Origin: a bacterium
GTDB lineage: Bacteria > Hydrothermota > UBA3073 > JACQXS01 > JAQTXJ01
DNA: 64,000 nt
Direction of reading: 5' to 3'
NCBI GenBank assembly: GCA_041649255.1
Contig: JBAZNK010000004.1
Coordinates: forward strand, 28,647 to 92,646
In this document: positions 11,906 through 41,752 of the stretch, piece by piece
Layout: each line of letters starts with the position of its first letter
Numbering within the stretch: the stretch's first letter is position 1
Notes under the pieces: generated by a model
Databases searched by the model: none
What the model saw: the letters and a program-made list of their open reading frames with translations, nothing else
What the model was told of the DNA's origin: nothing
Made by a program: the position numbers and the translations under genes

Positions 11906-13405
11906 TTAGAGTTTGTTATCCACCTCTGCTGGAGCATCCCCTTGTCTATTTACTTTCCCCTTCTCTATTCCCTTAACTTTTGTAAATATTTCTATCGCTT
12001 TATTCTCATTTCCGGATTTCTGGTAACATAGAGCAAGATTTTTTAATGCAGGAACAAATTCGGGATTCAATTTAAGCGCCTCTTCCAATTGAAAAATTGC
12101 TTTATCATACAATCCTTTTAACATATAACCGAATCCGAGTTTATTACATATTTCACAATCCTTTTGTCCGAGTAGAATCGCCTTTTCAAAACAATCACAT
12201 GCTTCGTCTACATTTAGAATCTTCAACAATAATTCTCCCAACAAAACATACAAAACAGGATTATCCGGTTGGATACTTATTGCGTTTTTATAAGATTCCA
12301 TTGCTTTTTCTAATTCATCTTGCTGTTCATAAATCCTGCTTAATTTAAGATACGGCACAACATAATTTTTATCCGTTTCTATTGCCTCATTATAATAAAA
12401 GATAGCTTTATCATTCAATCCTGCTGATTCATAAACTTCCCCAAGCATCTCATATATTACCTGCGGCGTCATTTTTATATAAAATAATCTATGTTGAATG
12501 AGTTGACATTTCTTTAACGCAATTTTTAACTCTTTTACCGCATCAATATATTCTTCCTTTATTGAATAAGAGTGAGCAGCATGAACATTAAACATGCACT
12601 CATCGGGATACAACTTAATTGACTTGCTACACCATTCCAATGCCTTATCCGGCTCCTTTTTTCCATTATACGCATCTATTATATATATATGTGTGAATAA
12701 TCGAAAATGTGGAGATGAAACATCAGAACTAATAACCTTATGGAAATGCTTTATTGCCGAATTTTCATCCCCCATCGCGTGGTATTTCGAACCAAGATAA
12801 AAATTAACAACAGGGGAATCAGGATCTTTTTTATACCATTCTTTTAATATTTTTAGACGTCCTTCCTTCTTTTTTAATTCTCCGGAAAGATAACCCACAT
12901 GATATATAAATATATCCATTATTTTTACTTTAATTTTAAGTTTTTGCATAGATTCTTCCAGATCATTGTGAATCACACCACTATAACAAATCCCGGGAAT
13001 ATTTTTAAAAAGCCTTATTAATATGTTAACATCAAAAGCAGGAGAATAGGGGATAAAAAAATTCCTCGTACTAATTGCATACGCATCATATTCAGGATTC
13101 TGCAGCAATGTTTCTATTTTTTTTCTATTCTCTTCATCTATATACTCATCCGCATCTATAATTAGTATCCATTCTTTTGTAACATATTTTAATGACTCAT
13201 TCCTCGCTGCCGAAAAATCATCGCACCACTTAAAATAATATACTTTTGCCCCGTATGATTTGGCTATTTCTACCGTTTTATCACTTGAACCGGTATCTAC
13301 TACTATTATCTCATCTACTAAGTCCTTAAAACTATCCAGACATCTTGGTAAATTCTTTTCCTCATCTTTTACAATCATACATAGGGATATGCTTTGTTTT
13401 TTCAT
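11906..13405 (-). CDS. GT2 family glycosyltransferase fused to C-terminal TPR repeats (GmaR-like architecture), paralog 1
   Basis: 499 aa; N-terminal GT-A fold (ISLCMIVKDEEKNL...IVVDTGSSD...DADE DxD-type motif); C-terminal half TPR-like. Confidence 0.75.
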   Translation of the reverse strand: MKKQSISLCMIVKDEEKNLPRCLDSFKDLVDEIIVVDTGSSDKTVEIAKSYGAKVYYFKWCDDFSAARNESLKYVTKEWILIIDADEYIDEENRKKIETLLQNPEYDAYAISTRNFFIPYSPAFDVNILIRLFKNIPGICYSGVIHNDLEESMQKLKIKVKIMDIFIYHVGYLSGELKKKEGRLKILKEWYKKDPDSPVVNFYLGSKYHAMGDENSAIKHFHKVISSDVSSPHFRLFTHIYIIDAYNGKKEPDKALEWCSKSIKLYPDECMFNVHAAHSYSIKEEYIDAVKELKIALKKCQLIQHRLFYIKMTPQVIYEMLGEVYESAGLNDKAIFYYNEAIETDKNYVVPYLKLSRIYEQQDELEKAMESYKNAISIQPDNPVLYVLLGELLLKILNVDEACDCFEKAILLGQKDCEICNKLGFGYMLKGLYDKAIFQLEEALKLNPEFVPALKNLALCYQKSGNENKAIEIFTKVKGIEKGKVNRQGDAPAEVDNKL

Positions 13406-13542
13406 ATAAAAGTTCCCCTTGCTTATTCTTCAATATCAACTTCTATTCTTCTTTTGTTCCCGAGCCTTTAGCTTGCTTAGAACTGGTTTCCCACCCTTAC
13501 TCGTCATTCCCGTGTAAGCGGGAATCCAGTATTTTTGCTGTT

Positions 13543-14520
13543 TTATTTTCTTATCAAATCCTCTACAAGTTTATTTACAGTTTTCAATTGCTTCTCTGAT
13601 GAATAATGTTCATCAATAAATTCTTTATATTCTATTGATTTATAATCTTTCGAAAACACCAATTTTCTAAATTTTTCAGGTGTTTCAAATAAATATTTCT
13701 CAGGATAAATCTCATTTGCCCCCGGGAAATAGTGAATAATAGGTTTTATCCCTCTTGCCATAGCTTCCATTATTCCCATTCCCTGGCTTTCTCGGATACT
13801 TGTAGAAATAATAAAGTTTTTGTCTTCTAACCAGTTATTTATATCTTTTATAAACCCATAAAAAGTTATGTTCTTTTCCAAATGCCACAACTTAATTATA
13901 TGGTCGAAATAATCTTTTATTTCAAGTGCAGGAGGATAATCATCATTGCATCGTCCGACAATATGTAATTTATATTTTGGGTTCAGGTTAACTATTTCCT
14001 TAAAACACTGTAATAACAAGGGAATGTTTTTCGCGGGACGGAAATCTCCGATAAATGCAATATTATATCCCGGTTTTCTATCTTTAAATGCAAAATTATC
14101 CACGTCCACTCCATTAGGAATGACAACAGTGTCGACTTTTTCTTCAAGAAAAGGCACTAATCTTTTCGTTTTTTCTTTTATATGATTGGCAACAAAGATC
14201 AACCTATCAACTCCTCCCCATCTCACCATTGAAGGCGTTCCCGTATACGTTTCATAACTGTGCAACCGGCAAACAACCTTACATATTTTAGGTCTCTGTG
14301 TCACATAAGCCAAAATAGGTTTACACCATTCAAACCAGGAAACATCACTCCATTGCATAATATCGTACAATTCTTCCGCCGTATTCCCGGAAAACACTTT
14401 TGTTTCATACCTTACAGATAAATTTTTAATAATTGGATCTAAAAAAGAAAATTCTCCGGGTTCAGCAATAAAAGCAATACGAGGTTTCCCGGAAGTATTT
14501 TTAATGCCTACACCCATCAT
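13543..14520 (-). CDS. Glycosyltransferase, GT1/GT4-like (GT-B fold)
   Basis: 325 aa; C-terminal EGFG-like nucleotide-sugar binding region (RESQGMGIMEAMARGIKPI). Confidence 0.6.
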   Translation of the reverse strand: MMGVGIKNTSGKPRIAFIAEPGEFSFLDPIIKNLSVRYETKVFSGNTAEELYDIMQWSDVSWFEWCKPILAYVTQRPKICKVVCRLHSYETYTGTPSMVRWGGVDRLIFVANHIKEKTKRLVPFLEEKVDTVVIPNGVDVDNFAFKDRKPGYNIAFIGDFRPAKNIPLLLQCFKEIVNLNPKYKLHIVGRCNDDYPPALEIKDYFDHIIKLWHLEKNITFYGFIKDINNWLEDKNFIISTSIRESQGMGIMEAMARGIKPIIHYFPGANEIYPEKYLFETPEKFRKLVFSKDYKSIEYKEFIDEHYSSEKQLKTVNKLVEDLIRK

Positions 14521-14726
14521 TTATCTCCTCTTTTCTGCACCTGTCTGCCATTTTTTGACAGATATTCCCCATGTTTTATTTCTAATATATATATTTGATA
14601 TTTAATTTTTTTACAGACTCTTTGGTAATAACCATTAGAGCTCGTTATCCCGTTCCAGCGGGGGATTTTTAATTTATCTCTCATTATGCATGCCCATTTC
14701 TCACCCACTACTCATATCTCTTTCTC

Positions 14727-16223
14727 TCACCGTTTCTCCAGCCTTCTCACTTTCGTAAATACCTCTACCGCTTTATTCTCGTCCCCGACTTTCTGATAAC
14801 ATAGAGCAAGGTTTTTTAATGCAGGAACAAATTCGGAATTCAATTTAAGCGCCTCTTCCAATTGAAAAATTGCTTTATCATACAAGCCTTTTAACATATA
14901 ACCGAATCCGAGTTTATTACATATTTCACAAGTCTTTTGTCCGAGTAGAATCGCTTTTTCAAAACAATTACATGCTTCATCTACATTTAGAGTTTTTAAT
15001 AATAGCCCTCCAAATAAAACATATAAAACAGGATTATCGGGCTGAATACTTATTGCGTTTTTATAAGATTCCATTGCTTTTTCCAATTCATTTTGCTGCT
15101 CATAAATCCTGCTTAATTTAAGATACGGCACAATATAATTCCTATCCGTTTCTATCGTCTTGTTATAATAAAATATAGCTTTATCTTTCAATCCTGCTGA
15201 CTCATAAACTTCTCCAAGCATCTCATATATTACCTGCGGTGTCATTTCCATATAAAATAATCGTCGCTGAACCAGCTGACATTTCTTTAGTGCAATTTTT
15301 AACTCTCTTACCGCATCAATATATTCATCCTTTAATGAATAGGAATGAGCCGCATGAACGTTAAACATACATTCATCGGGATATAACTTAATTGACTTGC
15401 TACACCATTCCAACGCATTATCTGGATCTTTTTTCCCATTATACGCATCTATTATATATATATATGAGAATAATCGAAAATGTGCATACGGCGTATCCGA
15501 ATCAATAACTTTACGGAAATGTTTTATTGCCGAACTTTCATACCCCATTGCGTGGTATTTTGAAGCAAGATAAAAATTAATAATGGGCGAATCAGGCTCT
15601 TTTTTATGCCATTCTCTTAATATTTTCAAACGACCTTTTTTCTTTTTCAATTCTCCGGGAAGATAACCTGTATGATATATAAATATATCTGTAATTTTTA
15701 CTCTTAATTTAAGTTTGCGTATAGATTCCTCTATGTCATTATGAATTACACCACTATAATATAAGCCATGGGTATTTTTATAAAGACGGATTAACACATT
15801 AATATCATAAGCAGGAGAATGTGCTATATAAAAGTTCTTGATATTAATCCCATATGCATCATAGTCTGCACTCTGGAGCAAAACTCTAATTTTAGCCTTA
15901 TTTTCTTCATCTATATATTCATCCGCATCTATACTAAATATCCATTCTTTCGTTGCATATTTCAATGTTTCATTCCGTGCTTTTGAAAAATCATCGCACC
16001 AGTTAAAATAATATATTTTTGCCCCGTATGATTTGGCTATTTCTACCGTTCTATCACTTGACCCGGTATCCACTATTATTATTTCATCTGCTAAGTCCTT
16101 TACGCTTTCCAGACATTTCGACAAGTTTTTTTCTTCGTTCTTTACCATCATACATAATGAAATAGTTGGAACTCTATGATCAACCGTCTGTAATTTTTTA
16201 ATTTCACTATTGTTTTTATTCAT
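14727..16223 (-). CDS. GT2 family glycosyltransferase fused to TPR repeats (GmaR-like), paralog 2
   Basis: 498 aa; same architecture as 11906..13405. The 3' two-thirds are near-identical at DNA level; the antisense shadow ORFs 12097..12348 and 14870..15121 are homologous. Confidence 0.75.
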   Translation of the reverse strand: MNKNNSEIKKLQTVDHRVPTISLCMMVKNEEKNLSKCLESVKDLADEIIIVDTGSSDRTVEIAKSYGAKIYYFNWCDDFSKARNETLKYATKEWIFSIDADEYIDEENKAKIRVLLQSADYDAYGINIKNFYIAHSPAYDINVLIRLYKNTHGLYYSGVIHNDIEESIRKLKLRVKITDIFIYHTGYLPGELKKKKGRLKILREWHKKEPDSPIINFYLASKYHAMGYESSAIKHFRKVIDSDTPYAHFRLFSYIYIIDAYNGKKDPDNALEWCSKSIKLYPDECMFNVHAAHSYSLKDEYIDAVRELKIALKKCQLVQRRLFYMEMTPQVIYEMLGEVYESAGLKDKAIFYYNKTIETDRNYIVPYLKLSRIYEQQNELEKAMESYKNAISIQPDNPVLYVLFGGLLLKTLNVDEACNCFEKAILLGQKTCEICNKLGFGYMLKGLYDKAIFQLEEALKLNSEFVPALKNLALCYQKVGDENKAVEVFTKVRRLEKR

Positions 16224-18423
16224 CTTTTTCTAAAAGCTCCTTTAAAACTGCTTGTCGAAAACTATCAACACTATTTGTAACTTGTCCCCGTTTGTCAAAC
16301 ATAATCCCAAGACTGGAGTCATATTCCTGGAGATTTAAAATTGGAACGCACCAATTCCCGGAGACTATACTTAATATTTTTTCACATCTATCCACATATC
16401 TATAATGTTGATGGACTAATTGGTACCCTGCTTTTGCTATATGCTCCCTTTCATCTTCATTTTCTAAATAATATTTAATTTTTTTCACCAGATCATCAAA
16501 ATCGTGCACTTTCCAATAAATCAGATGCTTTCCGTTTGCAAACATATCCGGCATTGAAATCTCTTCTGTAAGTGCAAAAGTCCCTGTTCCAAGAATTTCA
16601 TGCAGCCGTGTCTCTGTATTTAACAACTCTGTAAAGTGAAGGTTGAGAAAAATCTTACATTGATTGATAAAACAATTTAATTCTTCTCCATATACGCTTT
16701 TATAAACTATGTTAATTCCTTCTTTCTGGAGAGAATTCAATATTTCTTGCCTGCGAGGGGAAATAAGTCCTGAAAAGCCAATATCATATATTTTAGGGGT
16801 ATCTATCTTTTTATGTATTTTAGGATTTACTCCTGAGGTACTTACCCAAAATACATTCTTTCCACCGAGTTCTCTTATTTCATTAAGTGCGCTATAGTCG
16901 TGATGAAAGAACATATCAAAAGCTGATATATTTTGTTTAAGGTTTTCTGCGTTTATTTTTGACCTCCAGTCAGCAATTTCAGAACGCTGGTGAATTAATT
17001 CACCATACCATACAACAGTAGGTTTTGGGAAGAATTTGATCACCCCCGGGGGAATACCGTGTCCCTGTAATACTATTGTTATATCGGCAGATGAATAAAT
17101 AACATTTGAAAGACTTTCTTTACGGGAATCAAAAGTCTTTATTTCATACCCAAGCTGTTGAAATGCATCTAAAACATGATATTCGACTCCCCATTTGTTA
17201 CTAAAAACACCAACAAGATTTATCTTTTTTATCGGATATTCCAAATTTTCTTTTTTTGAATGCAATGCCACAATTTCTCTAATTTGACAAGTTGAATCCG
17301 TCTCGGACAGACTCGCCTCAACCTTTTCCCCTTTTCCGTACCTACCTGCCAATTCACTTTGCAGGTCTCCATCTCCCAAAACTTTCAAAACTTCCAACCA
17401 ACGTTTTTCCCATGTATGTTCTCTAAGCGCCCTTTTTCTCGCATTAATACCAATCCTTATAGTTTCTTCGGGATGGGCAATATAATACTTTACTCTCTTT
17501 AGAAGTTCTTTTTCATTTCGATAAAAAAGAATTTCTTTGTCCAGTTCAAAATAATTGGATAATTCTTCATTATAAGTGGTTAAATATGCAACTCCGGTCA
17601 TTGGAACCTCAAAGTCTCTGCCTTTCATTGCTTTTGCATCTTTCGTATATCCAAATCCTAAAGTAATAAATGAATTATGATAAATTCTAATCATTTCTTC
17701 TTGTGAAACCTCACCTTCAGGCCACTCCTTGCCTCTTGCATAAACAGGGATTCCATTCTTTTTTAGCATTTCAATAATCCCGGTACGGATACCGTAGTTT
17801 TGTCCTATAAAACTAACGGGTATATTTTTTTGAATTGTTCTTCTCTCTTTCCCAAAAACCTTCTCATTTGCCCCGGGAGGAACAAATAAAGGTGTCGCGC
17901 CAACTGACAAATATTTTTCCACATCCTTCCTACTCTGTGCAGTAATACAAACATCAAAAATAGAGGCTATTTCTCCATTTCCACTCCACCCTGTTGTTTC
18001 TTTCTTGCCCCAAAAACAACTCGTATCATCAAAACCAAAATTTATCGTTATTATACCCATTTCATTTATCTGTTGTATGGTTTCTCTAAAAACCCATCTA
18101 CCGGAAAGATACCCAAAAAAAATATGGATTGGCTTTTGCAAATGCGCTTCTTTCACTTTTTCTAACAATATATTATTAAACTCATTTTTTTTAATAGTAT
18201 GCCAATCTAAGGAATATTGATTATATTCTTCTCCCCAATCATAATGGACAACATCCGCAATCTTATTCCATGAATCCACTAAACCGGCTTTTTCCCAATT
18301 AATGTTTTTTACGGCAATAAAAATTCTTGGACGGGTATTATAAGGTATTTTTTTGTTCTGCTGTTTCAATTTATTTCTGATTGACCTTACCAAATCCTTG
18401 TCTTTTATAAAACTCTTATCCAT
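16216..18423 (-). CDS. Protein with two tandem CgeB-like (DUF3880 + Glyco_trans_1_2-type) glycosyltransferase-like domains
   Basis: 735 aa; two repeats each ending in the CgeB-family motif (...ARKRALREHTWEKR... and ...AKAGYQLVHQHYRYVDR...). Confidence 0.5.
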   Translation of the reverse strand: MDKSFIKDKDLVRSIRNKLKQQNKKIPYNTRPRIFIAVKNINWEKAGLVDSWNKIADVVHYDWGEEYNQYSLDWHTIKKNEFNNILLEKVKEAHLQKPIHIFFGYLSGRWVFRETIQQINEMGIITINFGFDDTSCFWGKKETTGWSGNGEIASIFDVCITAQSRKDVEKYLSVGATPLFVPPGANEKVFGKERRTIQKNIPVSFIGQNYGIRTGIIEMLKKNGIPVYARGKEWPEGEVSQEEMIRIYHNSFITLGFGYTKDAKAMKGRDFEVPMTGVAYLTTYNEELSNYFELDKEILFYRNEKELLKRVKYYIAHPEETIRIGINARKRALREHTWEKRWLEVLKVLGDGDLQSELAGRYGKGEKVEASLSETDSTCQIREIVALHSKKENLEYPIKKINLVGVFSNKWGVEYHVLDAFQQLGYEIKTFDSRKESLSNVIYSSADITIVLQGHGIPPGVIKFFPKPTVVWYGELIHQRSEIADWRSKINAENLKQNISAFDMFFHHDYSALNEIRELGGKNVFWVSTSGVNPKIHKKIDTPKIYDIGFSGLISPRRQEILNSLQKEGINIVYKSVYGEELNCFINQCKIFLNLHFTELLNTETRLHEILGTGTFALTEEISMPDMFANGKHLIYWKVHDFDDLVKKIKYYLENEDEREHIAKAGYQLVHQHYRYVDRCEKILSIVSGNWCVPILNLQEYDSSLGIMFDKRGQVTNSVDSFRQAVLKELLEKDE

Positions 18424-18484
18424 AATTATTTCTATAAACTATATTTTTTTAATATTATTTTTCTTACATTTACACTAATCACTT

Positions 18485-20368
18485 TTATTTCTCGGGCAAG
18501 GGTTTTACAGCAACTACCCTGAGGAAGTGGTCCAGACTTTTCCCCTCTTTCAGAGCCACATCAGTATGGTAATCTCGTGGTATTTCTTCAACAATATTCT
18601 CAAACCCACTTTCTTTAAGAAAACGGGATAACCTCTCAAAATTATACCCTGCTAAATGACAATCCGCTCTGCTACGTTGCCCGCCAAAAATCATCGTCAT
18701 ATTATGGTCTGTTGGGGCATTCATATAATCTTCAATACATTTATCCCCATTTGGACATTCAATAATCAGCTTCCCCCCGGGTTGAAGCACCCTGAACCAT
18801 TCTTTCAACATTTGTTTAGCTTCCGGTATTAAAACATGTTCTATCATATGATATGATTCTACCAGTTCCGCGCTATTACCCTGGAATCCTAAGCTACATG
18901 CATCCATTATTACATCTGCAAACGAATTCTTGTAAAGGTCAATATTAACGTATCCTTTTTTATATACTTTACCACAGCCAATATGTAACCTTAGCTTGTT
19001 ATCACAAACCTGTACTAACGGCGCATAATCATTTAATTCTTCTTTCATCACCCTTAATAAATTTCGTTTCAGGGTATTAAAATCAAACTTTTCACATACC
19101 AACTTTCTTGCATTTTTACTCATTTTTTCCACTAACCGTGGATTATTGGCCAAAAAATTCATTTTTATTGCCAGGTCATTTAGATTAACAATTTCCTCTG
19201 GGAAAGCAATATTATCTTCCCTCACTACTTTATTTGCAACCTCTACCAATAATCCATTATGTTTATTTTTAACAAACTCATTCATAGGAGGAGCATTTGT
19301 AGTGATTGCCGGCAAACCACAAGCTAAGGCTTCTATCAAACTCAAGCCCAATCCATCTAATTTGGACGGGTAAACATAAATTAATCCTTTATGGTAGAGT
19401 CCAGGTAGAGGAATTGTTCCCACACAATAAGTAATTCTTTCATTCTTTTGGACAATCCCAACAATTTCTAACGGTAGTTTTTCCAATCCAATCTGGGAAT
19501 GAATTAAAAGAGAGAAATGAGGATTATATTTTGATATCGCATCAAAAGCCAGTATAACCGCAGGAGTCATCTTACGATAATTTATTCCCACCCATCCCGC
19601 ATTATGGAAAAAAGTATATTGAGCTTTTTCTTTTTTAGGCATAAAAAGCTCGGTATCTGTTCCCCAACCAATATAATGAGCATTGCAAAAATCTTTAACA
19701 AGGTCAAAAGTTCTTTTCGTAGAACACAATACCATATCATACAGTTTCATATAAGGCTTCCAATCTTCCTTATAATAATCAAGATAAGTTATGATTTTTA
19801 CTCCTTTTTGTTTACAAAAAATAATTAGATTCCAATCATACTCTTCATTAAATATAATCATACCTATATTGTTATCGTCAATCCATTTTGCAATTATATT
19901 GTGTGGGATAAGATACTGATTAAAAGTTGTAAGGTTCGAAACTTCCCATTCTCCCTTTGTTTTTAAAGAAGGATTCTCAGGCGTTCCTCCATTCCTTGCA
20001 AAAACAAAAGTATTGTATTCTTCGGACAGCGCATCTCTTATTGTTTTTGTGACATACGCCTGACCTCTTTCAAACCACAAACTTATAAATCCAATATTAA
20101 GTTTATTAGAACATTTTTTTCCCTTTCTTGCTTGGAGTTTTGCTTCGCCAGAAACATTAGTGCAAGTTATCCTGCTCCGCCGTGCTTGCTTACAAAGTCT
20201 ATATATAGAAGAATAACGTTCTTTTACTTCAGGATGTGCTTCTGTTATTGCATCTAACCTAAGCATTGCTTCTTCTGTTTTCCCGCACTTAATTAATGCC
20301 CGGATACGAACTATTTTATCATCAAAATTCATATTCCTCAATTGCCACTCTAATCCCGAGTTTGCCAC
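18485..20368 (-). CDS. Bifunctional protein: N-terminal TPR-like helical module + GT-B glycosyltransferase + C-terminal class I SAM-dependent methyltransferase
   Basis: 627 aa; GT-B motif (GLGLSLIEALACGLPAITT); C-terminal MTase motifs (LHIGCGKVYKKGYVNIDL motif I; LQPGGKLIIECPN). Confidence 0.65.
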   Translation of the reverse strand: MANSGLEWQLRNMNFDDKIVRIRALIKCGKTEEAMLRLDAITEAHPEVKERYSSIYRLCKQARRSRITCTNVSGEAKLQARKGKKCSNKLNIGFISLWFERGQAYVTKTIRDALSEEYNTFVFARNGGTPENPSLKTKGEWEVSNLTTFNQYLIPHNIIAKWIDDNNIGMIIFNEEYDWNLIIFCKQKGVKIITYLDYYKEDWKPYMKLYDMVLCSTKRTFDLVKDFCNAHYIGWGTDTELFMPKKEKAQYTFFHNAGWVGINYRKMTPAVILAFDAISKYNPHFSLLIHSQIGLEKLPLEIVGIVQKNERITYCVGTIPLPGLYHKGLIYVYPSKLDGLGLSLIEALACGLPAITTNAPPMNEFVKNKHNGLLVEVANKVVREDNIAFPEEIVNLNDLAIKMNFLANNPRLVEKMSKNARKLVCEKFDFNTLKRNLLRVMKEELNDYAPLVQVCDNKLRLHIGCGKVYKKGYVNIDLYKNSFADVIMDACSLGFQGNSAELVESYHMIEHVLIPEAKQMLKEWFRVLQPGGKLIIECPNGDKCIEDYMNAPTDHNMTMIFGGQRSRADCHLAGYNFERLSRFLKESGFENIVEEIPRDYHTDVALKEGKSLDHFLRVVAVKPLPEK

Positions 20369-33768: not shown

Positions 33769-34916
33769 ATTTTTTTTGCAACAACAACCATTTCAGGTCC
33801 TATGTTAATGTCAAGGTTATCTAAATATTCTATAACTTGCAAAGCAATTTTTTTGTCCTCTAGGAATAATCGTTCTTGAATAAGATTAATACAAGTCTTA
33901 AGGGGACCTCCAGTGCTTCTGGTATACAATTTCAGGATTTCAAAACCTGCTTTCTCCAGATATTTACGCATAGTATCCGGAGTAAAGTAATATAAATGAT
34001 TAGGCCATGCCTTCCATTCCCATATTTTCCCCTGCGCCTTTGCCATAAAAGAATCAAAGTTAAGCGTGGTAAGCCACAACAGCCCATCGGATTTAATCGT
34101 TCTTTGCATTTCTTTTAATATCAATAATGGGTCTTTAAGATGTTCAATCACACATTGTATAGCAATTACGTCAAATTCATTAGCAGGAAACCTTGCGTCA
34201 ACAAAGTTATCTCCAATAGTTATATCTAATCCAAGTTTTTCAATGGCATAATTTGCAGTTTCAGGACAGGTTTCAAAACCTTTTACTTTCCAACCTTCTT
34301 CCTGGGCGGCTTTTAAAAACTCACCATTTGCACAACCTATATCTAAAATTTTTCCTTTATGAGTTATATATTTTTCAATTTCTCTTAATTCTCCCTTTCT
34401 GGCCAAAATTCTTGTTAAAATATTATTAGATATATTTTCCATAGTCTCATCATTGAAAACACTGTAATAGCTATTCAATTCATCGTCAGATGGTAGAGGG
34501 TTATAAGCCACAAGCCCGCAAGTTTTACATCTCACTAGATTAGAAGGATTTTCTTGATATACTATTTCATAATTATTTCCCCCACAAAGATTGCAATCAC
34601 TATATTCAATTTTTGCTAAATGAGACTCTTCCGTACACTCAATGTCCGGAGTTTGGCTCATTTTATTAAGCCAGTTTTCAAAATCTTTGTCAACTTTTGT
34701 TGCTCTCATTATCCATTCCGGTGGAACATCTGCCTTACCTACTTTAATACAAAGCTTACATAACATAGGGTACAACTCGTCCGTTTCAGGATATATTTCT
34801 ATTAAACTTTCTAATCTAAGTATCGCTTCTGTAGAGTTCCCATTTTTCTCTAATTGGCGGATATGGTCTATTTTATCAGAGAGTGCCATAGCAAGCCTCC
34901 TTATAGTTTGTAACAC
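33765..34916 (-). CDS. TPR-like N-terminal module + Cys4 zinc ribbon + class I SAM-dependent methyltransferase
   Basis: 383 aa; CNLCGG...CKTCG zinc ribbon; MTase motif I (ILDIGCANGEF); post-II/III motifs (VIAIQCVIEHLKDP...IKSDGLLWLTT). Confidence 0.7.
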   Translation of the reverse strand: MLQTIRRLAMALSDKIDHIRQLEKNGNSTEAILRLESLIEIYPETDELYPMLCKLCIKVGKADVPPEWIMRATKVDKDFENWLNKMSQTPDIECTEESHLAKIEYSDCNLCGGNNYEIVYQENPSNLVRCKTCGLVAYNPLPSDDELNSYYSVFNDETMENISNNILTRILARKGELREIEKYITHKGKILDIGCANGEFLKAAQEEGWKVKGFETCPETANYAIEKLGLDITIGDNFVDARFPANEFDVIAIQCVIEHLKDPLLILKEMQRTIKSDGLLWLTTLNFDSFMAKAQGKIWEWKAWPNHLYYFTPDTMRKYLEKAGFEILKLYTRSTGGPLKTCINLIQERLFLEDKKIALQVIEYLDNLDINIGPEMVVVAKKI

Positions 34917-34928: not shown

Positions 34929-35969
34929 TTATTTATTTCTAATTTCTTGCTCCAACAATGTTATTTGTTTTTCATATAATTCTTTTAATTTTTTGATATA
35001 TGTTTGAAATTTTGCCGAAGTATCCAACTCGTTCTGTATTATCTTTCTTCCGCTTTCTCGCCATTTTTCAATTTCGCAAGCAACTTCAGAATTTACAAGG
35101 ACTGGAGAACCATTAGCAATATGATTTCGCAACATTTTTACTTCATCAATTAAAAGTTGATTTAGGTCAAACGGGACTTTTTCTTTCTTATCCGCTTTTT
35201 CTTTCTTATCCGCTTTGACTTTATTTTCTACCTCAACTTGATTTTTATACAGAATCAAAATATATTTTTCTTCTTCCCTTGCAAACTTACACATAAACCC
35301 CAAAATTTCAGCCATTACATCAAAAGTCTTTTTTGAATAGAATGAAACATGTCCGGATTTTACCACAATATAATCCCAATCTTTGCCAACTTTTTTAAAA
35401 TCCCCATACTCTTGAGTTGCAGTATTTATTAAAAGTGTCCCCCGTGGTTTCACTATCCGTAATAATTCTCTAAATTCTTTCATAGGATTGGTCAAATGCT
35501 CAGCTACTTCAACACTCAATACCGCATCAAAATAATTATCAGGGAAATGCTTCTCTACCAAAGAACTCTTGAACAGGTAATTATTTTCTTGTAGACAGGA
35601 TGAGATATCAACCCCAACCATATCCAAACCGGCTTTTCTTCCAATTTTTACTGTCTCTCCTAATCCACATCCAAAATCTAAAACTTTGTGCACAGGAGCG
35701 ATAGATTCTAACAATAGGTCTTTCAATCTAAGAACACAGTCCCTCGTGGTTCTCTCAAACCACGGTTCCCCATTCCAATATGCCTGACTGTAGAACTTAC
35801 TTAAAGCTTCAACATCAAGATTATCTATGTAATCAGTAAACAGAAACTCACAATTTGGACACTGATAAAATCTTGCTCCTTCTTTCTCAAAGACAAAGGA
35901 TGCTGTTTTTTTGCATATTTTACAGGTTTTCTCCATAGATTCAGTTCTCTTTGACATAACTTTTTTCAA
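34929..35969 (-). CDS. Zinc-ribbon + class I SAM-dependent methyltransferase with C-terminal coiled-coil tail module
   Basis: 346 aa; CKICKK...CPNCEF; VLDFGCGLGE motif I; KADKKEKADKKEK repeat; last ~45 aa homologous to the tail of 37237..39333. Confidence 0.7.
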   Translation of the reverse strand: MKKVMSKRTESMEKTCKICKKTASFVFEKEGARFYQCPNCEFLFTDYIDNLDVEALSKFYSQAYWNGEPWFERTTRDCVLRLKDLLLESIAPVHKVLDFGCGLGETVKIGRKAGLDMVGVDISSCLQENNYLFKSSLVEKHFPDNYFDAVLSVEVAEHLTNPMKEFRELLRIVKPRGTLLINTATQEYGDFKKVGKDWDYIVVKSGHVSFYSKKTFDVMAEILGFMCKFAREEEKYILILYKNQVEVENKVKADKKEKADKKEKVPFDLNQLLIDEVKMLRNHIANGSPVLVNSEVACEIEKWRESGRKIIQNELDTSAKFQTYIKKLKELYEKQITLLEQEIRNK

Positions 35970-36013
35970 GCCAATAATTCTAGTAAAATTTTATCTATTG
36001 ATAATTATTACCA

Positions 36014-37240
36014 TTACTTACTGCATATAATAAAATGTTGTTTGGAAATCTTATGTTCTTTGATTTCGCTTTTTTTATAATCTACAGAAAAACCAAATTT
36101 TTTAAGTTTTTCCAATAAATCCATTCCATAATCTCTATAAACTAATGTGTGCCCGCCATGATATACAGGCGGTAAAAGATAAACGTCTTTTTCTCCTTCC
36201 GGTTTGACTCTTATAGTTGTGATTTTTGCGGGACTTTCTATCGGTATCGGTAGCGAAAGGAAAAATTTACCAGACCGTTTAAGCACTCTAAATATCTCTC
36301 TATATCCCTTATTGTCCAATCTAACATGTTCAAAAACATCTGCCGCGATAACAATATCAAAAGAATTTGAAGCAAACGGTAGATTCTGAACATTCACATA
36401 TTTACAGGAATCTATATTCTCATCAACTTTTTCAGGTATATACTCCGTATCTAAATAATCAAACTTTTGCTCTAAAATTTTACAACGGGGTCTTCCACCG
36501 CTTATTTCAAGGATTTTAAGTTTTTTATTTGACTCCCAGAATATCATCGGTTTATTTCCTTTGTCCAAACATTGAGCAAGTTGATATACAAGCATCCTAT
36601 CCCTACTATGAGAACTACAATTTAAACAATTTAATCCCTGTCGCCGATATTCCAGCAGCTTAGCTTTATTGTTATACTCACAACATACAGTATTGATAAG
36701 CTCTTTTAGTACAAGGTCAGAATCTAAGAACCCTTTTGGACTACCGCAAACATTACAATAAGGCGTTTTATTCGTTTTATAATTTGTTTTAAGACAATCT
36801 ATGGCTTTTTCTATCTTATTGGTATGAACATAAAGTCCGTATAAAATAATATACAATTCTTTTTGTTCAGGATAGTTAACGCAAAGGGATTTTAATCTTG
36901 TTATAGCTTCTTCTATATTGTTTTTTTCTATCAGTTGTTGAACTATAATTATTCTTTTTGAAAGTCCCATATTTCCACATTCATTATAGCCAAAATTTTT
37001 CAATACATCTTCTAATCCCGTCTCGACTTCAATCGCTTTTTTTACCCATTCTGTTGGAATATCAAACTTTTTAACGTTAATGTAAAGTTTACATATCATT
37101 GGATAGAGTTCTTTAATATCCGGGTACAATTTTAGAAGGGTTTCTAAGTTAAATACTGCCTCTTCTGATTTTCCGGTTGTAATTAATTGACGGATTTTAG
37201 TTATTTCCTCAGAAAATGTCATTGAAATATTCCTTTTCAT
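36014..37240 (-). CDS. TPR-like N-terminal module + zinc ribbon + class I SAM-dependent methyltransferase
   Basis: 408 aa; N-terminal module homologous to those of 33765..34916 and 18485..20368; MTase motifs (IVIAADVFEHV...LKRSGKFFLSLP). Confidence 0.7.
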   Translation of the reverse strand: MKRNISMTFSEEITKIRQLITTGKSEEAVFNLETLLKLYPDIKELYPMICKLYINVKKFDIPTEWVKKAIEVETGLEDVLKNFGYNECGNMGLSKRIIIVQQLIEKNNIEEAITRLKSLCVNYPEQKELYIILYGLYVHTNKIEKAIDCLKTNYKTNKTPYCNVCGSPKGFLDSDLVLKELINTVCCEYNNKAKLLEYRRQGLNCLNCSSHSRDRMLVYQLAQCLDKGNKPMIFWESNKKLKILEISGGRPRCKILEQKFDYLDTEYIPEKVDENIDSCKYVNVQNLPFASNSFDIVIAADVFEHVRLDNKGYREIFRVLKRSGKFFLSLPIPIESPAKITTIRVKPEGEKDVYLLPPVYHGGHTLVYRDYGMDLLEKLKKFGFSVDYKKSEIKEHKISKQHFIICSK

Positions 37241-39333
37241 TTCTTATTCTTAATTTCTTCCTCTAACAATCTTATTTGTTTTTCGTATAATTCCTTCAAT
37301 CTTTTGATATATGATTGAAATTTCGCCGTAGTATCAAATTCGTTCTGTATAGTTTCCCTTCCCTTTATTTTTAGTTCTTCAATAAGCTTGTCTTTTTCCT
37401 TAATAATACTTTCTTTCGCTTGAATAATGTTTTCTTTTTCCTGAATAATTCTATCTTTCCCTTGGAAAGATTCATTTCTAAGTTTTTTTTCATTATTATT
37501 TTTTTCTTCTAAATACTTTATTGGAAAACCATATATTAAATGATTCATTGGAACATTTTGTTTTTCAACTTTCCCGCATACAGCGATAATATAAATAAAT
37601 TTTTCAAATACTTGAAAATTCTCAGATGAATCCTTCCAGGTAGGTTGTGTATGGATCGGAAGAACCTTAAAATCTGTTGTTTGTTCTCTCTTGTTTTTTT
37701 CTAAAAACTGTTTTTCTATAATCATACCTTCAAAGTAGTCCTGCCCCCAAAAAGTTATTTCGGAAAAATATTTTTTTAGAAAAACATCAAATTCGTCAAT
37801 ATAATACTCATGAATATGAAAAGGATTTTTCCAGTCTTCAACGGCATCCGTATAAATTTTCTTATTAGGAGTAGAAATTATTAATATCCCATCCGTTTTT
37901 AATACTCTTTTTATTTCTGATAAATACATTTCAGGGTTTTGTAGATGCTCTACTACTTCAAAAGACACCACAACATCAAATACTTTGTCCGGGAAAGATA
38001 ATTTTTCAGCATTCATTACCTTAAATTCCAGGTTTTTATTTTCATAATTAGATTTGCAATACTCTATTGTTTCTTTGGAAATATCAATTCCTGTAACTTT
38101 TTTCGCACCACTTTTCAAGAGATGATAAGAACCATATCCACACCCACAACCTGCATCAAAAACTATTTTATCTTTTACATATTGACTGGCAAACATATAC
38201 CGCGTAATATGTTCAAGAAATAAACTTTCTCTCTCTGGGTTATCCGGAACCAATCTTTCTCCTGTAGATTCCATTTTTAACTTATTTTGCACTCCTTTTT
38301 GTTTAATTTTATAAGTTGCCTGACCTGCATCATTACCCTTTTCACAATTTTGTAGTGCTTGCTCGTTTTTGGTTTTTTGTAAGTTATTTACCAATTCATC
38401 ATATTCTTCCATCAACCCGGGTATCTGGCAGCTATAAGAACTCACACCGTAAGATATGCAGGATGAACATATAGGATTAGATATCCGCTTTTTTGCTATC
38501 TCGTCTGTATTCATATCAAGATAATTTCCAACTATGCCTTCCGGCTCAAAAGTTCCACAACACTGAAGAACCTCGCCTTTGTAAGTAAACGCAATTTGAT
38601 TGTAAAGTAAAGGACAAGGCATCCTGTATTTTTTCGCAATCTCCATAGCGGGCAACACAGGTAATAAATATTCAGAGGTTATGAATTCATCTTTATTTTT
38701 CCCCATAAAGTTATCAGCAAGAGCTATAAGCTCCTCAAATACCATATGTTTTGCATAATAGGTCGCAAAGCCAAAGCCCAAATCTTTCGCATATTTCTCC
38801 ATCAATTTCATCTCCATGAGATTAGTTTTATATTTATGATAATAGATATATACATTAGTAGTTGCCCCTGTTTGTTCTTTTGCTAAGGATAAAAGGTGCA
38901 TATTCATTTTCACTTTTTCAATATTTCCTCCCGCGTGAAAACGATTGTAAGTATTTTGGTACCACCCCGAAAGACTTATACAGAAGTTTTTGGGATTATA
39001 TTGCATAATTTCGTAAAAATCAACCGTCTTATTTAAGTTGCTGCTAATATTAACCTCAAATTGTAAAGATTTTGCAAAACTAATCAACTCAACAAGATTT
39101 GGATGCAAGAGTGGCTCACCCCAATTATATATGTCAATATCCTTAACTTGCGGGTAGTCATTTCTAAGTTTGGAAACTATCTTTCTGAATAAATTTAGAC
39201 TCATAAATGGTAACGTTTTATCATTTATTATTTTCCCTTTTCCTCTTGGGCAGGAAGGACAACGTAAGTTACAGTTTCCAACTATATCCATATGAACGGT
39301 TTTGATGTTCATAGGAGTAAAAGGTTCTTGCAT
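37237..39333 (-). CDS. Radical-SAM (CxxxCxxC, possible SPASM-like Cys cluster) fused to class I SAM-dependent methyltransferase and C-terminal coiled-coil tail
   Basis: 698 aa; VGNCNLRCPSCPRG radical-SAM motif; later Cys cluster PCPLLYNQ...QCCGTF; MTase motif I VFDAGCGCGYGS, VVSFEVVEHLQNP, DGILIISTPN; tail ...FQSYIKRLKELYEKQIRLLEEEIKNKK. Confidence 0.75.
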   Translation of the reverse strand: MQEPFTPMNIKTVHMDIVGNCNLRCPSCPRGKGKIINDKTLPFMSLNLFRKIVSKLRNDYPQVKDIDIYNWGEPLLHPNLVELISFAKSLQFEVNISSNLNKTVDFYEIMQYNPKNFCISLSGWYQNTYNRFHAGGNIEKVKMNMHLLSLAKEQTGATTNVYIYYHKYKTNLMEMKLMEKYAKDLGFGFATYYAKHMVFEELIALADNFMGKNKDEFITSEYLLPVLPAMEIAKKYRMPCPLLYNQIAFTYKGEVLQCCGTFEPEGIVGNYLDMNTDEIAKKRISNPICSSCISYGVSSYSCQIPGLMEEYDELVNNLQKTKNEQALQNCEKGNDAGQATYKIKQKGVQNKLKMESTGERLVPDNPERESLFLEHITRYMFASQYVKDKIVFDAGCGCGYGSYHLLKSGAKKVTGIDISKETIEYCKSNYENKNLEFKVMNAEKLSFPDKVFDVVVSFEVVEHLQNPEMYLSEIKRVLKTDGILIISTPNKKIYTDAVEDWKNPFHIHEYYIDEFDVFLKKYFSEITFWGQDYFEGMIIEKQFLEKNKREQTTDFKVLPIHTQPTWKDSSENFQVFEKFIYIIAVCGKVEKQNVPMNHLIYGFPIKYLEEKNNNEKKLRNESFQGKDRIIQEKENIIQAKESIIKEKDKLIEELKIKGRETIQNEFDTTAKFQSYIKRLKELYEKQIRLLEEEIKNKK

Positions 39334-39474: not shown

Positions 39475-40683
39475 TTAACTTACATATGCTTCTTTATTCC
39501 ACTCCCGCATAGTTTCTATTATACTGCTTGCGCGATGGACATAAGTATGTTCCTGTAAAACTCTTTGTCTTGCTTTTTTTGCAATCTTTTTTCTTTCGGT
39601 TGAATGCTGAAGATAAAAGTTAACCAGTTCTTTTAATTCTTCCTTATCCTTGAAAGTTATTACCTCTTCTTTTGGAATAAACAAATCAATCAAAGTCTTA
39701 CGTTCATCCGTAATAAGAAACCCGCCCGCAGCAGGAACATCAAATACCCTTTGATTACATCCCTCCGGCATTTGAAAACTTGTAATATTTAAATTTATTT
39801 CACTCCCGTTATAAACCAAAGGCAATTGAGTGTAATAGTTTACGGCAGGCAACAATGTTACGTTCTTGAAAAGTTTATGCCAACCCGTATCTCCATATAT
39901 TCTTAATCCACAAGATAAAATATTCTCCAAGACTTCTTGTCTTTTGTTAAACGTAGCTTTTAATGCAATATAAGACTCAAGTTCAGTTAATTTTCCATTA
40001 TCAATCGGCAATTTTAATTCCAGAGTTTCAGATATTTTTTTCAATGCTTTGCCTGAGAAAATTCCACTTTTATTATGTAATAATTTTAAGGTTTCATCAG
40101 ATAGTTTTTCCCATTCATTAATATTAGAGACTTTCTTTTTCCACTTATCAACTGATTCTATCATAGAATCTCCAACAAAGCTTATATCCGTTACATATTT
40201 ACCGGGTATATTTTCCATTAGTTTAAATATTTCCGGGTCAGTTCCAAGAGGTAAATACTTAACTTTTTTAAATCCTGATTCTTGAAGTTCAGAAACATAC
40301 AAAGGGTCCCACACAAATACGTTGGCATAAGGAGAAACGTTTTCTTTGTCATAACCTTCAAGAATATATCTAGGGGAATCTACATACCATATTGCATACG
40401 GAATCTTTAACTCGGTTAACAATCCCGTAATTTTCCCTTCACAGTCAAACCCCTCGTGGTTTACGGTGAATATGAAATCCGGTTGAAATTCACATAACGT
40501 AACCAGAAGTTCTTTTAGGAAGGTATCTTTCTTGTTAACAGTTATTTTACGAACTTCGCAGCCAAGTCTTTCAAATGCAGTAGCGCATTCTTTGACAATA
40601 TAATAATCCCATTCAAATATAACTATCCTTGTCTTATTTCTTTTGAATTTTGCATAAGATGTTGCGGATTTAATCTTTTGCAT
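39475..40683 (-). CDS. CgeB-like (DUF3880/Glyco_trans_1_2) glycosyltransferase-like protein
   Basis: 402 aa; C-terminal motif KIAKKARQRVLQEHTYVHR typical of CgeB-family proteins. Confidence 0.5.
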   Translation of the reverse strand: MQKIKSATSYAKFKRNKTRIVIFEWDYYIVKECATAFERLGCEVRKITVNKKDTFLKELLVTLCEFQPDFIFTVNHEGFDCEGKITGLLTELKIPYAIWYVDSPRYILEGYDKENVSPYANVFVWDPLYVSELQESGFKKVKYLPLGTDPEIFKLMENIPGKYVTDISFVGDSMIESVDKWKKKVSNINEWEKLSDETLKLLHNKSGIFSGKALKKISETLELKLPIDNGKLTELESYIALKATFNKRQEVLENILSCGLRIYGDTGWHKLFKNVTLLPAVNYYTQLPLVYNGSEINLNITSFQMPEGCNQRVFDVPAAGGFLITDERKTLIDLFIPKEEVITFKDKEELKELVNFYLQHSTERKKIAKKARQRVLQEHTYVHRASSIIETMREWNKEAYVS

Positions 40684-40693
40684 CGCTCATATT

Positions 40694-41752
40694 TCAGACT
40701 TTGCAGGAAATTCCGACTTTACTTATTACTGCTCTCAGTTTTTGAAATTCCTTTTTAGGATTGAAATGTGTTTTTATATAAATCTTACCATCTTCTACTA
40801 ATTCTCTCCTTAGGTTCTCATCATTCAAAACTCTTTTTATCTCTTTTACCCATTTATCCGGATTTAAGAAATCATCTATTAATATGGCGCCCGGTCCAGC
40901 AGCTTCAGGGATTCCACCTATTCTTCCTGCAACTACAGGTATTCCATTAAGCAAAGCTTCTACAATTATCATACCAAAAGTTTCTCCTATTACTGAAGGG
41001 ACAACTAATAATTTAGTAGTAGAATAAAAATATTTCGGAGGAGTATATCCCATATATCTTACATTTGGAAGTTTAAGTTTTATTCCATGTCCTACAGTTA
41101 AAAACTGTTCTTCCGGCATTAATCTGGCAATTTCACAAAAAGTTAAAATACCTTTACGGACTTCAGGCTGATACATAGTAATATACTTCTGAGGTACAAA
41201 TATCTCCTCGCATATGATTTCATCATAGTTGATAAACGGATAAATCACTTCCGAATCCATATTTGTAAACTCTTTTAACACCTGTCTTGTATATTCGGAA
41301 TTTGATATAATAGCATCTGCCTGTTGAAGCATCTCACGATTTCTTACAAGCGTAGTTTCATACAAATTGTAATAATTACAGTTTTTACAATTTCTGTCAC
41401 ATATTTCTGCATATAAGGGCACATGACAGAAATAATCCATACCATGAACAAAAAGAACTACCGGAATGTTTAACCTTTTGGCGATACTGACTGCAAAGGG
41501 AGCAAGATCAAACTGCGTAAATATGACATCCGGCAATAAAGTTTCTATACTTTTTGTAAGACTTAGCAATTCGCTAAAAGTATTTACTGTTACACCATTT
41601 TTTTCCACTTTTCTGCTTCTATTCTTTTCAATACAAAAAGCATAGGTATCAAATCCTTCCTCGCTTAAATGCTCAAGCAATGTTAAACTACTTTTTTCTG
41701 CACCTCTTAAAGGAGGATACAAATCGTGTGCTATGAATAATATTTTTTTCAT
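40694..41752 (-). CDS. GT4 family glycosyltransferase (GT-B)
   Basis: 352 aa; GETFGMIIVEALLNGIPVVAGRIGGIPE nucleotide-sugar binding motif. Confidence 0.75.
   Translation of the reverse strand: MKKILFIAHDLYPPLRGAEKSSLTLLEHLSEEGFDTYAFCIEKNRSRKVEKNGVTVNTFSELLSLTKSIETLLPDVIFTQFDLAPFAVSIAKRLNIPVVLFVHGMDYFCHVPLYAEICDRNCKNCNYYNLYETTLVRNREMLQQADAIISNSEYTRQVLKEFTNMDSEVIYPFINYDEIICEEIFVPQKYITMYQPEVRKGILTFCEIARLMPEEQFLTVGHGIKLKLPNVRYMGYTPPKYFYSTTKLLVVPSVIGETFGMIIVEALLNGIPVVAGRIGGIPEAAGPGAILIDDFLNPDKWVKEIKRVLNDENLRRELVEDGKIYIKTHFNPKKEFQKLRAVISKVGISCKV

Follow-up and report, generated by a model that had tools for sequence, protein, structure and literature searches.

A flagellin-linked gene island combining GmaR-type glycosyltransferases with cobalamin-type radical-SAM enzymes: a candidate flagellin glycosylation and glycan-tailoring system

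Flagellin glycosylation islands and GmaR-type enzymes are already known. The classic islands, namely those of Campylobacter, Helicobacter, Aeromonas and Clostridium with their pse/leg genes and Maf, and those of Pseudomonas, Geobacillus and C. difficile (A/B), are variable blocks of glycosyltransferase and methyltransferase genes with low guanine-cytosine (GC) content inside a flagellar locus. To our knowledge, the flagellin glycans studied so far involve nucleotide-sugar pathways, glycosyltransferases and ordinary S-adenosylmethionine (SAM) methyltransferases. Here we analyzed a 64,000-nt stretch of bacterial DNA (positions 28,647 to 92,646 of contig JBAZNK010000004.1; hereafter the window), in which an island at positions 11906-41752 lies between the flagellin gene and a flagellar operon. 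Like the classic islands, it is a low-GC block of glycosyltransferase and methyltransferase genes in a flagellar locus (30-35% GC, against 35-39% in the flanks), and it shows gene gain and loss between close strains, with two indels relative to a sister metagenome-assembled genome (MAG; locus L087). Unlike them, it encodes four radical-SAM domains (two of the cobalamin type and one SPASM) beside five class I SAM methyltransferase domains, and the window contains neither a nonulosonic-acid or other nucleotide-sugar pathway nor Maf. The observed domain content, gene order, protein solubility, GmaR homology and genomic association in relatives suggest that the island is probably a cytoplasmic system for flagellin O-glycosylation and glycan tailoring.

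A literature search that covered few subscription-journal papers returned nothing linking flagellin glycosylation with radical-SAM enzymes, and no description of glycosyltransferase-radical-SAM fusions shared with O-antigen-type loci; two papers in which both terms occur deal with other matters. Relative to the literature found, the cobalamin-type and SPASM radical-SAM components of the island and these shared fusions appear to be new.

The island comprises 17 co-directional minus-strand open reading frames (ORFs) of 100 aa or more, which overlap or are separated by short gaps, and two small ORFs (53 aa at 22608-22769 and 48/71 aa at 21665-21880). The NCBI protein numbering of the source contig (198 kb, belonging to a MAG) implies 19 annotated island genes. 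Thus, the block of consecutive minus-strand genes described in the initial annotation stands, but its count of twenty requires that flagellin, FliS and FliD be included. Overlaps of the reported 4-11 nt do occur, although "many" was a generous word for 4 of 16 junctions (8 nt at 16216-16223, 11 nt at 28795-28805, and 4 nt each at 33765-33768 and 37237-37240). The domain inventory was borne out in full by Pfam hidden Markov model searches, with a GxxExxY gene (i09) as the odd one, and the flanks are also as annotated. The genes for flagellin, a FliS-like protein and FliD follow the island at its 3' side on the same strand. Upstream and divergent lie two sigma-54 activators and then the flgB-fliR operon, in the order flgB?/flgC/fliE/fliF/fliG/fliH/fliI/fliJ/fliK followed by flgD/flgE/motA/fliM/fliN/fliO/fliP/fliR. 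The island therefore has the position of a flagellin glycosylation island, in or beside a flagellin and flagellar gene cluster.

Glycosyltransferases and their relation to GmaR

Listeria GmaR, a protein of 637 aa, transfers N-acetylglucosamine (GlcNAc) to flagellin and carries a tetratricopeptide repeat (TPR) domain after its catalytic domain (PMC9638930). The presumed acceptor and the glycosyltransferase and TPR genes of the window are as follows, with Pfam E-values in brackets.

10748..11620, minus strand: flagellin, 290 aa, D0/D1 only, presumed acceptor (Flagellin_N 3.5e-20, Flagellin_C 1.4e-10)
11906..13405, minus strand: i01, GmaR-like GT2 plus TPR protein, 499 aa (GT2 2.9e-22, TPR)
13543..14520, minus strand: i02, GT1-family (GT-B) glycosyltransferase, 325 aa (Glycos_transf_1 3.6e-17)
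14727..16223, minus strand: i03, GmaR-like GT2 plus TPR paralogue by Pfam, 498 aa, 80% identical to i01
16216..18423, minus strand: i04, two Glyco_trans_1_2 (CgeB-like) domains, 735 aa (4.2e-46, two stretches)
18485..20368, minus strand: i05, fusion of GT1 and class I SAM methyltransferase, 627 aa (Glycos_transf_1 8.5e-15, Methyltransf_11 1e-8)
20515..21708, minus strand: i06, GmaR-like GT2 plus TPR paralogue by Pfam, 397 aa, 59% identical to i01
21924..22538, minus strand: i07, TPR-only protein, 204 aa (TPR families ~1e-31)
22923..27050, minus strand: i08, GT2/GT1/GT2 giant with C-terminal TPR, 1375 aa (GT2 2e-47 in two stretches, Glyco_trans_1_4 5e-27, TPR)
27759..28805, minus strand: i10, weak GT9-like (heptosyltransferase-fold) protein, 348 aa (GT9 5.7e-6)
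39475..40683, minus strand: i16, DUF3880 plus Glyco_trans_1_2 (CgeB-like) protein, 402 aa (7.7e-34 and 1.1e-13)
40694..41752, minus strand: i17, GT4/GT1 glycosyltransferase, 352 aa, first gene of the island (Glycos_transf_1 9e-17, Glyco_transf_4 1.2e-13)

The catalytic domain of i01 matched GmaR (PDB 22ao) with an E-value of 2e-37 and 39% identity over 181 aa, including the DTGS and DADE motifs; the next PDB match was the peptide S-glycosyltransferase SunS (1e-24). Like Listeria GmaR, i01, i03 and i06 have an N-terminal GT2 domain followed by TPR, and they adjoin flagellin. By homology, they are candidate glycosyltransferases of the flagellin-directed (GmaR-, Maf- or Fgt-) type, and they appear to be recent paralogues. 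The first ~90 codons of i01 and i06 are nearly identical, and the two genes share an identical 26-nt stretch (13190-13215 and 21493-21518), which suggests gene conversion.

The three proteins also differ from Listeria GmaR. They are 140-240 aa shorter, and MogR-type regulation is not evident. The solved TPR, linker and antirepressor part of GmaR, the C-terminal end of which binds MogR, was not matched: residues 188-345 of i01 retrieved only generic TPR proteins from the PDB, and with full-length i01 the only GmaR chain among the best 60 of 131 matches was the catalytic domain. An antirepressor function was rejected in view of the lengths (397-499 aa against 637 aa) and the lack of any match beyond the catalytic domain in these searches, so that i01, i03 and i06 would be GmaR-type transferases and not GmaR orthologues. 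Furthermore, Listeria GmaR is one enzyme that adds a single GlcNAc, whereas three paralogues are present here amid 13 further enzymes.

Among the other glycosyltransferases, i04 had no sequence relative in NCBIfam or PDB searches. The assignment of i10 is a weak GT9 match only, since the NCBIfam heptosyltransferase score was below the cut-off and the PDB match (3tov) had an E-value of 2e-5. Homologues of i10 recur beside relatives of the radical-SAM giant described below (in loci L001, L002, L009 and L032, and by Pfam also in L005 and L089).

Radical-SAM and methyltransferase enzymes and their relatives

The radical-SAM and remaining methyltransferase genes form one stretch of the island.

28795..33768, minus strand: i11, radical-SAM giant, 1657 aa (Pfam Radical_SAM 4.4e-43 in three stretches, B12-binding 5e-23 in two stretches, SPASM 28.2 bits)
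33765..34916, minus strand: i12, zinc-ribbon plus class I SAM methyltransferase, 383 aa (Methyltransf_23 2.2e-24; CxxC-N18-CxxC at residue 108)
34929..35969, minus strand: i13, zinc-ribbon plus class I SAM methyltransferase, 346 aa (Methyltransf_23 8.4e-23; zinc ribbon at residue 16)
36014..37240, minus strand: i14, TPR plus class I SAM methyltransferase, 408 aa (Methyltransf_11 1.7e-10, weak TPR)
37237..39333, minus strand: i15, radical SAM plus class I SAM methyltransferase, 698 aa (Methyltransf_11 1.8e-26, Radical_SAM 31.9 bits)

In i15 the radical-SAM domain is N-terminal (CNLRCPSC at residue 21), and a C-terminal region of ~200 aa has no domain match. The giant i11 is separated from flagellin by 17 kb and from flgB by 11.6 kb. 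It consists of a B12-radical-SAM module A (residues 1-~520), a second such module B (~560-1100), a TPR array (~1110-1290) and a radical-SAM/SPASM module (~1310-1657), with CxxxCxxC motifs at residues 226, 786 and 1336. Modules A and B each have a B12-binding domain (PF02310) N-terminal to a CxxxCxxC radical-SAM core (PF04055; motifs at 226 and 786). This is the arrangement of the class B (cobalamin-dependent) enzymes, such as the methyltransferases GenK/GenD1, Fom3, TokK, CysS and the PoyC-type RiPP C-methyltransferases, whose substrates are sugars or peptides, and HpnJ, a sugar-rearranging non-methylase. Unlike the known class B enzymes, i11 carries two such modules one after the other, joined to a TPR array and a SPASM radical-SAM module. 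Genomic context differs as well: the partners of i11-type proteins are glycosyltransferases in flagellar or O-antigen-type loci, whereas the known class B enzymes belong to antibiotic, hopanoid or RiPP (ribosomally synthesized and post-translationally modified peptide) clusters. The SPASM domain (PF13186, residues 1578-1635) scored 28.2 bits against a cut-off of 21.5; its CX12GX4C motif is present, and of the second group of Cys residues a shortened form, CxCx3C, is left.

Among the NCBIfam families, TIGR03975 (RiPP C-methyltransferase) matched both B12 modules best, at 145 (144.7) and 115 bits against a cut-off of 282 (281.85), and the next families, ApyD, HpnJ, BchE and PhpK, were all further below their cut-offs. 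The NCBIfam search thus placed the modules in no curated family (TIGR03975, HpnJ, BchE, PhpK, KedN5 and others). Their closest solved relatives are the cobalamin radical-SAM methyltransferases CysS (1e-10) and TokK (2e-5). The third module resembles NirJ/AhbD-type SPASM enzymes, far below the NCBIfam cut-offs. Judged by these matches, both B12 modules appear to be generic class B radical-SAM enzymes. Methylation is the commonest class B activity, and members of the HpnJ, BchE and OxsB type perform other chemistry.

Flagellar genes were sought in 86 genome and metagenome loci. A tblastn search with the window proteins was informative only for about 16 loci of at least 38% identity, as matches below 38% were generic B12-radical-SAM enzymes. 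Full-length relatives of i11 (100% coverage) are confined to its own 90%-identity cluster, which holds the window protein and two from close MAGs; all other matches reach no more than 71% query coverage. The third i11 module corresponds in relatives to a separate, adjoining SPASM gene (36% identical in L001, E-value 1e-72). The 16 closest loci, the window included, were classed by Pfam annotation or marker searches in flanks of at most 10 kb. Because the giant of the window itself sits 17 kb from flagellin, flagellar linkage is under-counted by this survey. Apart from the window, the loci were classed as follows.

L087, flagellar: 93% identical, syntenic
L001, flagellar: FlaG, FliD and two FliS
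L007, flagellar: FliS
L002, flagellar: FlgD and FlgE, with NeuB and cytidine monophosphate (CMP)-sugar synthetase (L002/L003)
L010, flagellar: flagellin
L089, exporter-type: Wzm, Wzt with Wzt_C, Bac_transf, PMT_2 and sugar-nucleotide genes
L006, exporter-type: Wzm/Wzt, deoxythymidine diphosphate (dTDP)-sugar genes and a sulfotransferase
L013, exporter-type: Wzm/Wzt
L009, exporter-type: Wzx-like Polysacc_synt and rhamnosyl O-methyltransferase
L004, glycan-type without a decisive marker: carbamoyltransferases and epimerases
L008, glycan-type without a decisive marker: DegT aminotransferase and epimerase
L005 and L090, glycan-type without a decisive marker: giants with glycosyltransferase, methyltransferase and TPR parts
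L011 (Spirochaetales MAG, 200-7194), not glycan: single B12-radical-SAM protein 47% identical, with a SPASM partner and a neighbour resembling protein-isoaspartate methyltransferase (PCMT-like)
L012, not glycan: solitary B12 module among housekeeping genes

Glycan-type loci therefore account for 14 of the 16, the window included. Six loci from five independent lineages are flagellar (the window, L087, L001, L007, L002 and L010), and four are exporter-type polysaccharide loci (L089, L006, L013 and L009). The MAGs that carry these genes are labelled Nitrospirae, Nitrospiraceae, Deltaproteobacteria, Ignavibacteriae and Omnitrophota, and some are unclassified. In an aligned segment at the end of L010, the flagellin of this Ignavibacteriae MAG is 53% identical to that of the window.

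Radical-SAM modules are fused to GT2 or GT1 in four relatives (P0005, P0007, P0017 and P0018), and in L004 to GT4 and to a carbamoyltransferase. The exporter-type loci have in common with the window the double B12-radical-SAM module (38-50% identity), a SPASM gene as its partner, and methyltransferase and GT2/GT1 genes nearby; a GT9-like neighbour is a further common feature of L089 and L009. In L089, the double module is 50% identical and fused to GT2, inside a Wzm/Wzt/Bac_transf polysaccharide locus. The exporter-type loci differ from the window in that they carry Wzm/Wzt or Wzx and no TPR, whereas the window is rich in TPR and has no export genes. Sugar-nucleotide genes in L089 and L006, and Bac_transf in L089, likewise have no counterpart in the window.

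The distribution of TPR was surveyed with the TPR segments of the window as queries. TPR-bearing ORFs were found in 6/6 flagellar loci (8, 6, 3, 1, 1 and 3 ORFs, with 8 in the island itself) and in 0/4 exporter-type loci. With the window and L087 counted as one lineage, the split is 5/5 against 0/4, an exact probability of ~0.008. The TPR domain of Maf-1 gives flagellin and site specificity, according to a study as it is cited in PMC13317340. The presence of TPR in all flagellar loci and in no exporter-type polysaccharide locus supports a docking role onto a protein substrate. This idea was already part of the initial annotation, and it has become the best-supported part of its reasoning.

Proposed pathway and alternative explanations

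The island proteins appear to be soluble. The highest 19-residue Kyte-Doolittle mean in any of the 17 is 1.76, compared with 2.99 for FliF and 2.49 for a TonB-like protein, and none of the 17 contains a hydrophobic segment of transmembrane grade. Pfam scans of the window ORFs found no Bac_transf, Wzx, Wzy, Wzm, Wzt, lipid-carrier transferase, flippase, ligase or exporter. The components of a lipid-linked polysaccharide locus, i.e., an initiating transferase, an exporter, a polymerase or ligase and membrane proteins, are accordingly missing from the ORFs scanned, and a lipopolysaccharide (LPS) or exopolysaccharide (EPS) locus was rejected because export genes, lipid-carrier genes and membrane helices were absent. 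Together with the GmaR-type transferases and the homologues in flagellar loci, these properties uphold the proposal that the island is a flagellum-linked protein-modification system.

The initial annotation had also seen a RiPP or proteusin flavour in the island, which the analysis did not support. No RiPP recognition element (RRE)/PqqD domain, leader protease or exporter was matched by Pfam at E<=0.01 in any island protein. Nor was a recognisable RiPP precursor present among the two small ORFs of the island: the 53-aa ORF has no Pfam match and lies 6 kb from the giant, and the 48/71-aa ORF is poorly conserved. A RiPP/proteusin pathway was therefore rejected for want of an RRE, precursor, protease and transporter, with family scores, including those for TIGR03975, far below cut-off.

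The fusion of the B12-radical-SAM module to glycosyltransferases and its occurrence in polysaccharide loci without a protein acceptor point to a sugar substrate. Most simply, enzymes of this clade would act on sugars, and it is most likely the glycan, not the flagellin polypeptide, that is tailored by the radical-SAM enzymes and the methyltransferases. On the question whether the homologues sit beside EPS/LPS loci or flagellar loci, the outcome was mixed, as the closest relatives lie in flagellar loci and those further away in polysaccharide loci. This recasts the toolkit as glycan-tailoring and leaves flagellin as the target here unrefuted.

We infer the following substrate, sequence of steps and chemistry. 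The island would be transcribed separately from flagellin, with sigma-54-like sites before i17 and the 53-aa ORF and a hairpin after i01, and flagellin would be transcribed from its own sigma-28-like promoter. At least one of i01, i03 and i06 would add the first sugar to Ser/Thr residues of the flagellin central segment (~residues 143-215), which is Ser/Thr-rich. This sugar would probably be an N-acetylhexosamine from the housekeeping uridine diphosphate (UDP)-sugar pool, added before export through the flagellar type III system while TPR arrays hold flagellin. The GT-B enzymes (GT1, GT4, GT9-like and CgeB-like) and the GT2/GT1/GT2 giant may then extend it to an oligosaccharide with housekeeping nucleotide sugars. 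The five class I SAM methyltransferase domains would add O- or N-methyl groups, and the two cobalamin-type radical-SAM modules would act on unactivated sugar carbons, by methylation or by another rearrangement. A further radical step, e.g., oxidation, epimerisation or dehydration, may fall to the SPASM module and to the radical-SAM domain of i15. For the radical-SAM step, C-methylation is most likely, and rearrangement, oxidation and epimerisation are possible.

Several observations weigh against this proposal. No nucleotide-sugar or nonulosonic-acid (pse/leg/neu/vio) genes and no Maf were found among the window ORFs scanned with Pfam, unlike in classic islands. The initial annotation was correct on this absence as far as the window goes, but the flagellar locus L002 has NeuB and a CMP-sugar synthetase beside its giant. 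The Listeria GmaR system draws on UDP-GlcNAc, and dedicated nucleotide-sugar genes are not universal to flagellin glycosylation. The B12 modules score below every curated cut-off, so that methylation is assigned to them only as the commonest activity of their class. L011 and L012 carry a B12 module of 43-47% identity and yet are not glycan loci, and the 10-kb flanks limit the context calls both ways. Finally, the sigma-54-like sites of the island lack the canonical GG and one has a sigma-70-like overlap, so that sigma-54 control is only hypothetical.

The radical-SAM enzymes and methyltransferases might instead modify the flagellin polypeptide by C-methylation, epimerisation or cross-links, with TPR and zinc-ribbon parts docking the substrate and the glycosyltransferases acting separately. 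The ranking of TIGR03975 and then ApyD as best NCBIfam matches would fit this explanation, as would the resemblance of the SPASM module to peptide maturases, among others. What mainly keeps it alive is the TPR array embedded in the giant, given the correlation of TPR with protein-substrate contexts, and L011, where the 47% identical module is paired with a PCMT-like protein. A further L011 neighbour is an 856-aa protein without a domain match, no sugar genes are nearby, and the locus is possibly a peptide-modifying use of the same module. However, the TIGR03975 scores lie far below the cut-off, the island scans gave no PqqD/RRE domain, precursor-type peptide, leader protease or exporter, and the GT2-fused double module of L089 stands in a polysaccharide locus without TPR. 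Several independent fusions of radical-SAM modules to glycosyltransferases and carbamoyltransferases also argue for sugars, and we consider modification of the polypeptide unlikely. A combined version, in which TPR arrays dock the folded 30-kDa flagellin and the radical-SAM modules install C-methyl groups, D-residues or cross-links alongside a glycan, is doubtful to the same degree.

Two further explanations concern the target of the glycan. A general protein O-glycosylation system might serve flagellin and other secreted or surface proteins, and the 8 TPR-bearing ORFs and three diverged initiating paralogues could recognise several acceptors. The general O-glycosylation systems known so far depend on a lipid-linked glycan together with an oligosaccharyltransferase in the periplasm, but neither a lipid-linked route nor an oligosaccharyltransferase was found among the island proteins, and the linkage to flagellar genes is conserved in relatives; we regard such a system as quite unlikely. 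The island could also make a cell-surface polysaccharide or lipid-linked glycan of the LPS/EPS type, with its flagellar location being incidental. The giant homologues in L089, L006, L013 and L009 and the GT9-like heptosyltransferase-fold enzyme speak for this possibility. It is very unlikely, however, considering that no initiating polyprenyl-phosphate transferase, flippase, polymerase, ligase or ABC (ATP-binding cassette) exporter was found among the ORFs scanned, that no island protein has a membrane helix, that three GmaR-type protein glycosyltransferases are present, that the five closest independent relatives keep the flagellar linkage, and that the TPR content of the window fits the flagellar class and not the exporter class.

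If the flagellin glycosylation and glycan-tailoring proposal is correct, C-H-functionalising chemistry would be added to protein glycosylation, C-methylated or rearranged sugars would be predicted on the flagellar filament, and a portable glycosyltransferase/radical-SAM toolkit would serve both flagellin glycans and exporter-type polysaccharides. The split between TPR and exporters would offer a simple genomic rule that separates protein-directed from lipid-directed versions of the toolkit, and the natural glycosyltransferase-radical-SAM fusions suggest candidate substrates for the uncharacterised class B enzymes of a large clade. If the polypeptide were the target, radical-SAM "peptide" chemistry would be applied to a full-size secreted structural filament protein. 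The source lineage is uncultured, which makes experimental proof harder.

Transcription signals, strain variation and minor features

Promoters were assigned by consensus pattern matches only, with positions read from the sequence. The signals and the activator genes are as follows.

11649..11674, minus strand: sigma-28-like promoter TAAAGTTT-N11-GCGATAA, a good consensus match ~29 nt upstream of the flagellin ATG
11781..11814, minus strand: perfect 15-bp hairpin, 92 nt downstream of i01, the last island gene (RNA fold -32.3 kcal/mol, z=-10.2)
22809..22824, minus strand: sigma-54-like site TGACACGGAATTTGCT with one mismatch in the conserved GG, a possible promoter within the island, ~40 nt before the 53-aa ORF
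41778..41793, minus strand: sigma-54-like site TGACACGGAACTTGCT, possibly the promoter of the island, 26 nt before the start codon of i17
42264..45231, plus strand: two divergent sigma-54 activators (Pfam Sigma54_activat 4e-64 and 2e-69)
45316..45331, plus strand: perfect sigma-54 promoter TGGCACGAAATTTGCT by pattern match, just upstream of flgB

The hairpin probably marks where the island transcript ends or contributes to transcript stability; it lacks a canonical U-run, so that a terminator role can only be proposed. The sites before i17 and the 53-aa ORF are near-identical (TGACACGGAAyTTGCT) and both are conserved in L087, where the i17 site is identical; the site before the 53-aa ORF is overlapped by the sigma-70-like match. 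The pattern TGGCAC-N5-TTGCW with at most one mismatch occurs at four sites in the window, where ~1.15 are expected, and 5 of 100 shuffles gave at least four. All four read into the downstream gene, and three of the four are intergenic.

The fourth site, TGGCACATTTGTTGCT (44151-44166 within 44143-44166, plus strand), is perfect and falls a short way inside the second activator ORF as listed with a TTG start. Translation probably begins further downstream, and the gene may itself be sigma-54-dependent. The first activator (42264-43520, plus strand) has a 1-nt deletion at ~43490 relative to L087. The resulting frameshift cuts off the C-terminal HTH_8 DNA-binding domain, whose sequence can still be read in a different frame. 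Either real pseudogenisation or an assembly error would account for it.

The window and the sister MAG share ~90-94% DNA identity over most of the region, and the window has two extra segments. One is i13, which is absent from the otherwise syntenic sister MAG; the two strains are predicted to differ by one methylation step. The other is an insertion of ~700 bp between i10 and i08, whose L087 counterparts overlap directly. It carries the following gene.

27144..27527, minus strand: i09, GxxExxY/PD-(D/E)XK_3 protein (Pfam 2.8e-39, TIGR04256 135.6 bits)

Absent from L087, i09 is a strain-specific insertion that probably lies outside the pathway. Such gain and loss of genes between strains is typical of glycosylation islands. 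Repeats of the phase-variation type were also sought, and the island contains no G/C runs of 7 or more and no A/T runs of 10 or more. Phase variation like that of Campylobacter was rejected on this ground, and the island differs in this respect from the phase-variable classic islands.

The 53-aa ORF (22608..22769, minus strand) has a very basic N-terminus. It is identical to L087 at 161 of 162 nt, compared with ~92.7% in the surrounding segment, and may encode a small regulator or act at the RNA level.

The position of the source lineage was considered with cysteinyl-tRNA synthetase, which is 81-92% identical in three close relatives and then at most 62%, with matches of 52-55% spanning many phyla. 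In L091, the relative with 81% identity, four proteins with Por_Secre_tail (type IX secretion sorting) domains adjoin cysS (7777-15046), which hints that the source lineage lies in or near the FCB (Fibrobacteres-Chlorobi-Bacteroidetes) group.

Just downstream of fliD on the minus strand, two tandem paralogous ORFs of 69 and 64 aa (7681-7890 and 8035-8229) share the start MEINTSPTFY. The 64-aa ORF matches FlaG below the threshold (19.7 bits; cut-off 23.8), and the pair possibly encodes miniature FlaG-like proteins. Between a phosphotransferase system EIIA gene and the flagellar genes lies a lone 224-aa ORF (6838-7512, minus strand) whose only match is to part of ribosomal protein L3 (51 bits) and which is not close to a ribosomal operon anywhere in the window.

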